This document shows, one piece after another, positions 63 to 18,814 of a stretch of DNA of 18,814 nucleotides. A program made the position numbers and the translations under genes. Under the pieces are notes generated by a model. It saw nothing but the letters and a program-made list of their open reading frames with translations. It searched no databases and had not been told where the DNA came from. Location of the stretch: the UHGV virus genome UHGV-2198042; one strand, given 5' to 3'. The stretch's first letter is position 1. Each line of letters starts with the position of its first letter. Origin of the DNA: a virus.

Positions 63-77
63 TTAGTATAAAAAAGC
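63..77. repeat. att core (O) copy, attR-type junction (P-O-B' read on minus strand)
   Basis: ttagtataaaaaagc is the reverse complement of the lambda core GCTTTTTTATACTAA; host-like sequence on one side, P-arm-like sequence on the other. Confidence 0.85.
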
Positions 78-10185: not shown

Positions 10186-10291
10186 GTTGTTGAGCTTTTG
10201 CCCAACCCGCCCTGATAGCTGCCTGTGTGGCGTTTAAATCTTTCAGGTACTCACGGGCAAACAGCTCTTGTTTGTCGGTGAGCTTTGCCAT
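10136..10291 (-). pseudogene. terminase small subunit N-terminal stub
   Basis: 51-codon frame MAKLTDKQELFAREYLKDLNATQAAIRAGW... matches the conserved terS N-terminal HTH motif, then loses similarity and stops; overlaps the tape-measure start in another frame; GGAG RBS upstream. Confidence 0.5.
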
Positions 10292-10531
10292 TGTTGGCTC
10301 CGTTTATCCGTTAAAAGGGATATCAGTTAAGTTATCCCGTGCAGGGTATAAGCCATTGTCGAGACCACTCATTGAATGGCCTCTGCAATAACCGATGTCT
10401 TTCCATCAGCCCGCCACCACAAAGAATCTTTTTTGCCATAAGGCTGGAGGTTCATCTTTCAGTGGCTGCCAGTGTTATTTCCCCACTTACTGGCTTGGGT
10501 TGCTTCGTGGTACTGCCGTAACTGGTGGTGC

Positions 10532-10551
10532 ACAGATTTAGTTAAATCTGT
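10532..10551. promoter_or_regulatory. perfect 9-bp-arm palindrome acagattta-gt-taaatctgt
   Basis: Seen directly in the roughly 350-bp noncoding region between the 85-aa ORF and the terS stub. Confidence 0.25.
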
Positions 10552-10643
10552 TCTCGCCTGAACTATCTTTTACATACCCGGATTGTGGGGATGTAAATCA
10601 CGGTTTCATTATCAAGCCCACCCGTAGATGGGCTTTGTAATGG

Positions 10644-10901
10644 CTACTTCGCTTTTGCTTCCGCTCGCTTACGCCGGCGCTCTTCTTTCCTCTCGGCTTT
10701 TGCCATGTCCATGAATGCCTGCATGATCGAGTTCCGCATCATGTAGCTAACAAAGTGATGATTGACACAGCCGTTGAGGCGCAGCTGCTCGCCAAACTCA
10801 TCCACCGAGGCCAATGCTTCCCTCATGCCCTTCTCGCCTTTCATGAACTCTGAGAAGTCGCGCCCCGCTCTGGAGGCGCATTCAATGACACGATCACTCA
10901 T
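10644..10901 (-). CDS. hypothetical protein with basic C-terminal tail
   Basis: 85 aa ORF whose start overlaps the KilA-N gene stop (ATGA); C-terminus AKAERKEERRRKRAEAKAK; hairpin after the stop. Confidence 0.45.
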   Translation of the reverse strand: MSDRVIECASRAGRDFSEFMKGEKGMREALASVDEFGEQLRLNGCVNHHFVSYMMRNSIMQAFMDMAKAERKEERRRKRAEAKAK

Positions 10902-16340: not shown

Positions 16341-16503
16341 CGTCTTCTTCCTCGTGCATCGAGCTATTCGGATCGCTCATCAGTTCTGCGCAGCAGTGCT
16401 CACACACGTGAACTTCCAGCACATGCAGCTTCTGACCGTAGTTAGCGCACGTTAAAGCTCGCTCGACACTTCCTTGTTCGTAACTTCGATTTTGGTCAAT
16501 CAC
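16333..16503 (-). CDS. ninF: NinF-like zinc-binding small protein
   Basis: 56 codons below the ORF-track cutoff, GTG start after a GAGGA RBS: ...SVERALTCANYGQKLHVLEVHVCEHCCAELMSDPNSSMHEEEDDE, near-identical in pattern to lambda NinF from memory; stop overlaps the Rha gene start. Confidence 0.6.
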   Translation of the reverse strand: MIDQNRSYEQGSVERALTCANYGQKLHVLEVHVCEHCCAELMSDPNSSMHEEEDDE

Positions 16504-16524
16504 CTTGTTTTCCTCGCACGTTCT

Positions 16525-17559
16525 CTAATCGACCAGAATCATGCCAACACATCCTTTTTCTCGCTTGATTCGACGACTTTCGCTGACGATTTGAGCCAGA
16601 GATAATCCCGGCGTGTCGTCGATGTAAAGCAGGTCGATTTCACTCAAGCGATTGGCTGTTTCGATCGCCCTGTTGAAGTCACCATCGTAATCACCCTGAT
16701 AGCCGTCATCAGCGTCATTTGTCGCCGGAATGTAAAAAATATTCGGGTTAACACCTGACTTCTGTCCTACCAGCTTTTCCAGTATCTGGTCGCCTGGCAT
16801 TTCAAGACTGAACATCAGAGCGGGCTTTTTCTCATGCACTGCGCAGTTGATTGCCATCTGGCTGTATAGCGTCGTTTTCCCCATCTTAGGGCGAGCGCCA
16901 ATGACGAACAGAGAGCCTTTCACCAGACCTTTCGGTGACAGCATCCTGTCCAGAGATGGGATCCCTGTGCTCATTCCTCGTTGTTCGCCTGACGGGTCAA
17001 ATCGCTTCTCAAGGTCGCTAACCCAGTCTTCCATGACCTCACCAAATGAGCGAAGGCCGCGACGCGATCCGGTTTTTGCATGGTCTGTCAGTTGCGTGAA
17101 AATCGCCTGAATAGCTTCGTACTTCTGCGTTGCAGTCATTCCGTTGCGGGAATAGAGCAATTCCGTCGCTTCAGTCATGCGGTTGATGGCGTAGCGTTCC
17201 ATTGCGGTTTCACGAACCTGCATTGCATAGGCAACGATGTTTGCTGCGCTTGGCGTGTTCTTTGCGATCTCAGCGATATAAGCAAAACCGCCAACAGACG
17301 CCGTTAACGATTTACGCTCCAGTTCATCGAAAAGCGTCAGGCCATCTACTGGCTTTTGCTCCCGGTGCATTCTGGTTATTTCTTCGAAAAGGATTTTGTG
17401 TGGTCGGCTGTAAAATGAATCAGGCTTCAGCATCGCCAGAACTTTCTGGACGCGCTCACTGCTGTCATCATCCAGAAGCAATCCACCAATCACCGCCTGC
17501 TCTGCCTCGATGCTATGGGGCGGCGCATAAAAATTATCGGTCATCGTGTTCACCCTCAC
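16525..17559 (-). pseudogene. DnaB-like replicative helicase (P22 gene 12 type), 3'-truncated at Walker B
   Basis: 344 aa; Walker A GARPKMGKT present; ends ...GCVGMILVD* exactly where the DnaB Walker B motif (hhhhDYLQ) should continue; about 100 C-terminal residues missing. Confidence 0.7.
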
Positions 17560-18115
17560 GAACTTTCAGGTAGGTATTATCGTTAAGCAGGAAATCAAAT
17601 CCCTTTTTGTGCCAGACGGTTCCGCGTTGATGGTTTGGGCGCTCTTCGAACATCCATCGGCAATTTTCGCCAACGTAGCTCAAATAATTTCTCCAGTCCT
17701 GCATCGTGAACCCATGCCCGTCAAGTTGGCGTGTTATTACTCCGGCTTTGCGCCAGAACGTTCGGATCTGGTTTTTACGCTTGTCATTCAGTGCGCGGAT
17801 TCTTGGCGCTTCAGGAAGGATTTCGTGGTAAGCATCGACAACATCCTGACAGCTGACGGAAGGTTTTTTCTTGTCAGACTTTTTGTCTGCTGTGGCACTC
17901 TCTAATACGTCAGTATTAGAGATATTATTTATATTATTGTTTATGGACAACTGTTGGACAACCGTTGGACAATCTCCGCTGAGAGCCGCACCATTACTGG
18001 TGTTTGCGTTGGACAACCGTTGGACAACCGTTGGACAATTTTTTGACTGAAAATCGTCATATTTAACGATTGTAAACAGGCTAAATTTCTTCCCCATCGC
18101 GCAAATATTAAGCAT
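17534..18115 (-). CDS. replication initiator (O-like, iteron-containing); start codon uncertain
   Basis: Overlaps helicase start as in O-P / gene 18-12 arrangements; contains the iteron cluster in its 5' part (repeated CPTVVQRLS); the ORF-track N-terminal 37 codons overlap the int-homologous segment, so an internal Met (about 18115 or 18097) is more likely. Confidence 0.5.
   Translation of the reverse strand: MLNICAMGKKFSLFTIVKYDDFQSKNCPTVVQRLSNANTSNGAALSGDCPTVVQQLSINNNINNISNTDVLESATADKKSDKKKPSVSCQDVVDAYHEILPEAPRIRALNDKRKNQIRTFWRKAGVITRQLDGHGFTMQDWRNYLSYVGENCRWMFEERPNHQRGTVWHKKGFDFLLNDNTYLKVREGEHDDR
17944..18038. repeat. replication origin iterons: six copies of an 11-bp unit NNGTTGGACAA in two triplets, flanked by an AT-rich tract
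   Basis: Seen directly: atggacaa/ctgttggacaa/ccgttggacaa and gcgttggacaa/ccgttggacaa/ccgttggacaa; AT-rich tattagagatattatttatattattgtttat adjacent (about 17900-17943). Confidence 0.7.
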
Positions 18116-18217
18116 CCCTTTCGACTCAAAAGTCCGTAATAAGCTCCGAACTTTGTTGTCGGGGATGAATGTTTCTCTGACCAGCGACGGGCGTCCAGTT
18201 GTCCGATAGCTCCCTGT

Positions 18218-18664
18218 ACCGGGCAACGAGTCGGTGATTTATGCGAAATGAAGTGGTCTGATATCGTAGATGGATATCTTTATGTCGAGCAAAGCAAAAC
18301 GGGCGTAAAAATTGCCATCCCTACAACATTGCATGTTGATGCTCTCGGGATATCAATGAAGGAAACACTTGATAAATGCAAAGAGATTCTTGGCGGAGAA
18401 ACCATAATTGCATCTACTCGTCGAGAACCGCTTTCATCCGGCACAGTATCAAGGTATTTTATGCGCGCACGAAAAGCATCAGGTCTTTCCTTCGAAGGGG
18501 ATCCGCCTACCTTTCACGAGTTGCGCAGTTTGTCTGCAAGACTCTATGAGAAGCAGATAAGCGATAAGTTTGCTCAACATCTTCTCGGGCATAAGTCGGA
18601 CACCATGGCATCACAGTATCGTGATGACAGAGGCAGGGAGTGGGACAAAATTGAAATCAAATAA
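18218..18664 (+). pseudogene. int: integrase C-terminal fragment (lambda Int residues about 209-356)
   Basis: Translation ...TGQRVGDLCEMKWSDIVDGYLYVEQSKTGVKIAIPT...HELRSLSARLYEKQISDKFAQHLLGHKSDTMASQYRDDRGREWDKIEIK* is near-identical to the lambda Int C-terminus from memory; upstream of about 18218 the frame is unrelated and hits a stop at 18140-18142. Confidence 0.85.
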
Positions 18665-18737
18665 TGATTTTATTTTGACTGATAGTGACCTGTTCGTTGC
18701 AACAAATTGATAAGCAATGCTTTTTTATAATGCCAAC
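18665..18737. promoter_or_regulatory. attP P'-arm homologue with Int arm-type sites
   Basis: tgactgatagtgacctgttcgttgcaacaaattgataagcaatgcttttttataatgccaac matches the lambda P' arm from memory. Confidence 0.7.
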
Positions 18738-18752
18738 TTAGTATAAAAAAGC
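18738..18752. repeat. att core (O) copy, attL-type junction (B-O-P' read on minus strand)
   Basis: ttagtataaaaaagc followed by aggcttca..., matching the attB B arm from memory. Confidence 0.85.
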
Positions 18753-18814
18753 AGGCTTCAACGGATTCATTTTTCTATTTCATAGCCCGGAGCAACCTGT
18801 GAACACATTTTCAG
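18753..18814. other. host chromosomal flank (attB arm) outside prophage
   Basis: Sequence beyond the core has no phage features and begins with the attB B-arm motif. Confidence 0.6.

Follow-up and report, generated by a model that had tools for sequence, protein, structure and literature searches.

The window analysed here (the whole stretch of DNA, 18,814 nt) is one 18.7 kb defective lambdoid prophage of E. coli at the lambda attachment site (att-lambda), and close to its right-hand end three blocks of homology, to an O-like replication initiator gene, to cro and to the 3′ part of int, follow one another directly. These blocks, their exact limits, their collinearity with intact relatives and the absence of an IS or repeat were observed directly, and we infer the number of deletion events behind them and the functional consequences. 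In our judgement the site is somewhat more probably than otherwise the scar of a deletion of about 10.2 kb that took place as a single complex event. The coordinates of the features are collected in Table 1.

Table 1. Features of the defective prophage and of its composite joint (window positions)
Feature	Position	Strand	Remarks
attR core (TTAGTATAAAAAAGC)	63..77	.	left prophage end; lambda-like P arm after it
Truncated DnaB-like helicase	16525..17559	-	344-aa ORF, 339 aa from ATG, versus 478 aa in mEpX2
O-like initiator, 3′ three-quarters	17534..18203	-	mEpX2/Sf6 gp43 type; codons 76-296 kept, 1-75 deleted
Origin-like iterons, repeated TTGGACAACCGTTGGACAA units	17943..18041	.	inside the O remnant; direct reading
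cro island TGTCCGATAGCTCCCTGT	18200..18217	-	exact 18-nt lambdoid cro piece, cro nt 75-92 of vB_EcoP-683R2
int 3′ fragment	18217..18664	+	int nt 624-1071, codons 209-356 and stop; lambda type
Sole startable ORF in int fragment	18248..18664	+	138 aa, Met219-Lys356
attL	18665..18752	.	P′ arm, 0 mismatches to lambda; 15-bp core 18738-18752
O/cro joint sequence			GTCCAGTTGTCCGATAGCTCCCTGTGTGCAT
cro/int joint sequence			CCCAATGTCCGATAGCTCCCTGTACCGGG
Composite window-type junction sequence			CCAGTTGTCCGATAGCTCCCTGTACCGGGCAACGAG

The defective prophage between ybhB and ybhC

The right-hand end of the element consists of the int fragment and, next to it, an att site with Int arm sites, after which bacterial DNA towards ybhC starts at 18753; contigs with the same int fragment run on into ybhC, ybhJ and ybhI. 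The ybhB side was identified against E. coli strain 81. At the left end, the P arm (59-198) is 83.6% identical to the P arm of lambda attP, while the P′ arm at the other end is identical to that of lambda, an observation that points to different histories of the two arms and a mosaic attP.

The DNA between the att sites comprises tail-fibre and baseplate genes and genes for an SLT-domain tail protein, KilA-N, Rz, lysozyme, holin and Q, together with those for NinH, RusA, YbcO, an antirepressor-like protein, NinF, the truncated DnaB-like helicase and the initiator fragment. No xis, cI, cro gene or N is present in the window. The element thus has the make-up of a defective lambdoid prophage, being bounded by attL and attR between ybhB and ybhC, with its genes for excision, immunity and replication lost or truncated. 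Judging from this gene content, the element would be unable to excise, there being no Xis and only an Int fragment that has neither the DNA-binding domains nor a translatable Arg212; it would be neither inducible nor able to confer immunity, since the repressor cI, Cro and N are gone; and it would not be expected to replicate, with both O and the helicase truncated. Excision by Int and Xis acting in trans may be conceivable, both att cores being intact.

The SLT-domain tail ORF of the window comprises 545 aa, compared with 755 aa in the prophage of strain 81. In strain 81 this ORF is followed by genes for the tail tube, sheath, neck and head; the window lacks these and has KilA-N and the lysis cassette instead. 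At least one further large deletion joint should fall in about 10186-10900.

The truncated int, O and helicase genes

In an ungapped nucleotide alignment, 18217-18752 matched lambda at 98.7% (7 mismatches in 536 nt), the corresponding lambda positions being 28259-27724 (NC_001416, int 27812-28882), an agreement far beyond chance, and the homology continued without a break past the int stop, across the P′ arm and the att core, and on into the ybhC flank. The breakpoint on the int side is at 18217/18218, that is, int nt 624/625 (codon 209); identity of the int-type protein begins at Thr209, and of the 148 residues from 209 to 356, 146 are those of lambda Int. The first-pass annotation, made from the sequence before any alignment, had placed the mid-gene start of int homology at about 18218, which was right to within one base. 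It had also described the frame upstream, opening after a stop at 18140-18142, as devoid of resemblance to Int, and indeed the alignment to lambda int was random upstream of 18217; Int homology upstream of 18218 was searched for by alignment and not found. No homology to int nt 1-623 was detected anywhere in the window by nucleotide alignment with lambda int.

Compared with lambda, the window keeps codons 209-356 of int with their stop, and beyond it the P′ arm and the 15-bp core, but lacks xis and codons 1-208, which encode both DNA-binding domains (arm-binding and core-binding) and the beginning of the catalytic domain. The DNA that lies between int and O in lambda and carries the native int promoters is likewise absent from the window, these promoters being placed, as we take it from lambda, inside the deleted interval. 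The proposal of a deletion junction inside int has therefore held, with codons 1-208, xis and the native int promoter regions lost and a presumably dead 3′ fragment, the last 40% of the gene, remaining. Pfam found only the catalytic domain in this fragment (PF00589, E=7e-33, profile positions 30-168 of 172), which agrees with the earlier statement that the N-terminal DNA-binding domains are missing; the arm-binding and core-binding domains (PF09003 and PF02899/PF22022) do occur in split and intact int genes of other genomes.

The plus-strand frame from 18143, preceded by stops at 18137-18142, reads APNFVVGDECFSDQRRASSCPIAPC up to the joint and TGQRVGDLCEMKW beyond it; read on from these stops, it begins APNFVVGDECFSDQRRASSCPIAPCTGQRVGDLCEMKW and ends at the stop at 18662-18664. 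The first in-frame start of the int fragment is the ATG at 18248 (Met219), and no ATG, GTG or TTG occurs in frame between the stop at 18140-18142 and this ATG. The catalytic residues of lambda Int are Arg212, Lys235, His308, Arg311, His333 and Tyr342. The Arg212 codon is present at 18227-18229, upstream of any start codon and hence outside the 138-aa ORF, and the others (Lys235 to Tyr342) all lie inside it, so that no single translatable int ORF contains the complete catalytic set. The window from 18217 to 18814 is 100% identical to int, attL and flank in E. coli KTa005, where int is intact; the seven positions at which the window departs from lambda thus represent allelic variation, and no sign of decay later than the deletion is seen. 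Taken on its sequence, the int piece is probably a pseudogene fragment, of which no function is expected.

A consensus promoter scan gave 4 matches against 2.4 ± 1.8 expected, which is the level of chance, and the matches of the promoter and terminator scan as a whole were no better than chance. This result is consistent with the earlier assertion that the int fragment has no promoter, but is no proof of it.

On the other side of the joint, 16526-18203 is 98.3% identical to mEpX2 in nucleotide sequence and about 98% identical to the replication modules of mEpX2, Sf6, HK106, HK629 and vB_EcoP-683R2. BLASTP of the O fragment against O of mEpX2 gave 219 identities in 221 residues, starting at residue 76 of 296. 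The initiator, aligning only from residue 76, is thus likewise truncated and without its true 5′ region; the first-pass annotation was mistaken in taking the strand opposite the joint for the 5′ region of the initiator gene. By register, the start of a full-length O (296 aa) would lie at window position 18424, which is now int DNA. Against phrog_345 ('replication initiation O-like'), an intact O spans profile positions 1-292 of 297 and the 193-aa called product of the window only positions 96-292 of 297, so that the window copy is not a full-length O-like initiator. This assignment was made with PHROGs, Pfam giving only a sub-threshold match to DUF7376 for the initiator. The iterons inside the O remnant contain 30-nt self-matches (17944-17973 and 18010-18039), and the Sf6 record annotates an origin-like repeat region at their position.

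The helicase gene breaks off after 16526, where it runs into the final codons of ninE immediately before ninF. At this joint the dnaB parent reads GGTCGATTA followed by CC, and the ninE parent reads GGTGGCTTA followed by GAGAACG; the two have an exact TTA in common, inside an imperfect 14/18 match. In another remnant, situated beside sbcB (L015/L016), the helicase gene is broken after the identical base and joined to the 3′ part of a GH24 lysozyme gene (4560-4620 in L015; the window counterpart is 16500-16560). The window and L015/L016 copies show 25 differences in 1,678 nt and are not especially close, each being at least as close to intact phages as it is to the other. Their common helicase breakpoint may reflect a hotspot or a shared history, and we prefer neither.

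The C-terminal part of lambda O contacts the helicase loader. The 193-aa called product is an N-terminally truncated O that retains the C-terminal part and lies beside intact iterons. It is conceivable, if very improbable, that this O′ product, the iterons and the truncated helicase could interfere, by poisoning or titration, with the replication machinery of incoming phages that have the same O and ori type (mEpX2, HK106, HK629 and Sf6). In that case the host would gain an exclusion at the level of replication that outlasts the loss of cI immunity, and the presence of an O′-dnaB′ pair in the unrelated L015/L016 remnant would be due to retention rather than accident.

The cro island and the course of the deletion

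At the joint, O homology is exact up to 18200, with a mismatch at 18201 and matches at 18202-18203, and int homology starts at 18217, leaving 16 bases (18201-18216, GTCCGATAGCTCCCTG) between the last exact O base and the first int base. A search of the window, lambda, mEpX2, HK629, HK106 and the int-fragment loci revealed no source of this 16-mer, only chance matches with three mismatches in ybhC. A scan of IMG/VR with the 16-mer found it in at least 119 contigs, of which 116 represent one cro sequence family, and BLAST puts that family in the cI-cro-cII immunity region (Louie, vB_EcoP-720R6 and vB_EcoP-683R2). In vB_EcoP-683R2 (L140), positions 2887-2904 correspond to window 18200-18217 at 100%, inside the annotated cro and on the same strand, and the island lies 939 nt past the O breakpoint on the side towards int. 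Its orientation was as in the window in all of 12 IMG/VR contigs with the same O type, and in the five of them whose O homology extends as far as the breakpoint, it lies 927-933 nt from that point. Both the orientation of the island and its order between O and int are thus ancestral. The chance expectation is about 2e-6 for the 16-mer in 10.2 kb on one strand (10,236/4^16) and about 1.5e-4 for the 13 bases without a match in O or int, and the island is therefore a real remnant, or a copy, of the cro of the ancestor. The earlier reading of the site as a deletion joint stands, but not as a plain two-way join, since the DNA coding for '...SSCPIAPC' includes the 18-nt cro piece.

Two intact prophages at att-lambda found in IMG/VR (L086 and L066) carry O, the cro type of the island and int in the order and orientation of the window. 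In L086, the O homology extends to 1369, the island is at 2295-2312, and int homology runs from 11621 through attL into ybhC at 99%; its ORFs comprise an intact 296-aa O, others of the sizes of cII, cro and cI, a 72-aa ORF of xis size and an intact 356-aa int. Measured against L086, the window is without 928 nt on one side of the island (O codons 1-75, a small ORF, cII and the 3′ part of cro) and 9,308 nt on the other (the 5′ part of cro, cI, N, recombination and accessory genes, xis and int nt 1-623). The typical gene content of the deleted interval is seen in HK629 and HK106. The ancestor probably resembled L086 and L066, with an early region that we reconstruct from mosaic relatives, and its gene order would have been dnaB-like helicase, O, small ORF, cII, cro, cI, N, recombination genes, xis, int and attL. 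The island identifies the immunity type of this lost ancestor, and the scar of its decay is composite.

Inspection of the joint revealed no IS end, direct or inverted repeat or hairpin, and a direct reading of the sequence around 18190-18230 showed nothing att-like (T-rich core). Deletion mediated by an IS or by Int was accordingly rejected, and the joint is one of illegitimate recombination. The first-pass annotation had proposed a check for microhomology, which gave 1 nt per joint: O and cro share T18200, with an imperfect TnTC, and cro and int share T18217. A simple two-ended microhomology deletion does not account for the joint, O and int being separated by 16 cro bases, and what was found has the form of a complex deletion with a short patch, the patch consisting of cro from the deleted interval with a T in common at each end.

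The loss took with it int nt 1-623 and xis, the leftward early operon in its entirety and the immunity region, as well as cII and O codons 1-75, and left an 18-nt scrap of cro, in its original orientation, between two large breakpoints. In a single event, a broken end or nascent strand may have been joined, or may have switched, twice at 1-nt microhomologies, thereby copying or retaining the 18 nt of cro. The competing explanation is that two successive deletions, one of about 9.3 kb (cro to int nt 623) and one of about 0.93 kb (O codon 75 to cro), left the 18 nt by accident, and we regard this as the less probable of the two but a substantial possibility. The island has the native orientation and order that a leftover would have, 1 nt of microhomology per joint suits ordinary illegitimate deletions, and the prophage has suffered other, separate deletions (the dnaB/ninE joint at 16526 and the loss of the head genes and part of the tail genes); however, endpoints placed at random over about 10 kb would have to stop short of an earlier joint by no more than 18 nt, at about 18/10,000 per event, and no intermediate with one deletion was found in the complete E. 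coli genomes, IMG/VR or the JGI metagenomes. We moderately prefer a single illegitimate event because two deletions need this unlikely coincidence and because no such intermediate was found. No observation contradicts the reading as a deletion scar as such. The preference for one event is an argument from parsimony only, namely that two random deletions rarely leave 18 nt between them, and the missing intermediates carry little weight, given how rare the junction itself is in the databases.

Two further explanations were considered. That the 13-18 bases are untemplated filler or local divergence that resembles cro by coincidence is hardly credible: the segment is short, and the 18-mer receives only E=0.018 when the whole window is compared with a single locus by BLAST, but all 18 nt agree with cro on the correct strand, the match falls within the sole interval able to hold a remnant, in phages and prophages with the same O and int, it has the chance expectations given above and no alternative source in the window or the other loci, and the 18-mer is not common in unrelated E. 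coli DNA, 116 of the 119 IMG/VR matches listed belonging to the cro family.

The other explanation concerns the reality of the junction. L014 and L017, contigs from two separate metagenome assemblies, ERZ28810828 (a 50 kb contig) and ERZ773108, agree with the window at 100% over 4,281 nt and 2,341 nt, respectively, the joint included, and five further similar places were reported. Since the identical joint occurs in independent assemblies, it is no assembly artefact. Searches of 5,426 complete E. coli genomes, the GTDB species representatives, IMG/VR and the JGI metagenomes did not find the junction; it is real but belongs to a rare lineage. A look-up of the 230-aa TTG-start ORF across the junction returned no record, and that of its 193-aa ATG-start version retrieved the identical contigs. 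Lambdoid phages are mosaic, and the absence of the junction from all complete E. coli genomes searched would suit either a chimeric assembly or a natural mosaic boundary of a working phage; yet, given the identical contigs, the cutting of both genes in mid-domain, the lack of all genes needed for lysogenic control, excision and replication, and the position of the element between an intact attR and attL in the chromosome, we consider both exceedingly unlikely.

Relation to other prophages and prophage remnants

Lambda-type int has been disrupted independently at other loci, close upstream of Met219, and in L006, L007, L008 and L013 the gene concerned is an int at att-lambda. L006 (5960-5990) has a 98-nt deletion inside int (nt 527-624) that ends 1 nt from the breakpoint of the window, L007 (120-170) has an insertion at int nt 619 whose end reads like the IS3 family, L008 (40-110) has one at int nt 598 whose end reads like IS2, L013 (900-940) has a +2 frameshift, and int is broken at nt 464 in L005 and at nt 427 in L004. 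A hotspot of int breakage was considered and rejected: these loci were retrieved through the exact 138-aa Met219 product, and their clustering is probably a matter of ascertainment because this product is called mainly where there is a disruption just upstream, Met203 being an in-frame alternative start. L004 (5100-9600, GCA_021916285.1) carries an identical 138-aa int fragment, with int homology from nt 427, that does not lie beside ybhC; it adjoins a 202-aa gene of the Phage_Wedge1 family, and on the other side are gtrA, gtrB and glucosyltransferase genes and a P22-type tailspike gene.

A related prophage with baseplate and tail genes is present between ybhB and ybhC in E. coli strain 81 (NZ_CP088131.1; L003 3000-19300) and is also heavily deleted. 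In that element, int and xis are intact, and its deletion joins a fragment of a head-tail adaptor gene to cIII. It represents an independent decay of a related prophage and shows that decay has occurred repeatedly at att-lambda.

Among intact relatives, L086 and L066 have the O/dnaB-like module (about 98% identity), the cro type, int, attL and the ybhC flank in common with the window, and HK629, HK106 and vB_EcoP-683R2 have the same O/dnaB-like replication module, again at about 98%. All of these keep the 10.2 kb that the window has lost, with a 296-aa O, a 356-aa int, cII, cro, cI, N, the recombination genes and xis complete.

The element is a textbook case of ordinary prophage decay; features of this kind are already known, and its modules are known from sequenced phages. 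The sole detail out of the routine is the composite joint, in which an 18-nt patch reveals the immunity type of an early region that has vanished. For annotation, the 138-aa 'integrase' and the 193-aa 'replication protein' are fragments that should be labelled pseudogenes, and the element should be labelled a locked prophage remnant; beyond annotation, its importance is small. As a point of method, unexplained bases at a joint proved traceable to a gene that is otherwise wholly lost, and if such patches are common in the scars of prophages, they could be used for the reconstruction of ancestors and for the study of how bacterial DNA is deleted without homology.

To our knowledge, no short cro-like patch at a joint has been described for the cryptic lambdoid prophages of E. 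coli K-12. The window differs from these also in its site, att-lambda between ybhB and ybhC, and in its breakpoints. Nevertheless, it is of the same kind as DLP12, Rac and Qin, listed among the cryptic or 'grounded' lambdoid prophages of K-12 in a review (PMC6379469), in that deletions have stripped an integrated lambdoid genome of its excision, immunity and replication functions, and this genome is passed on as part of the chromosome.
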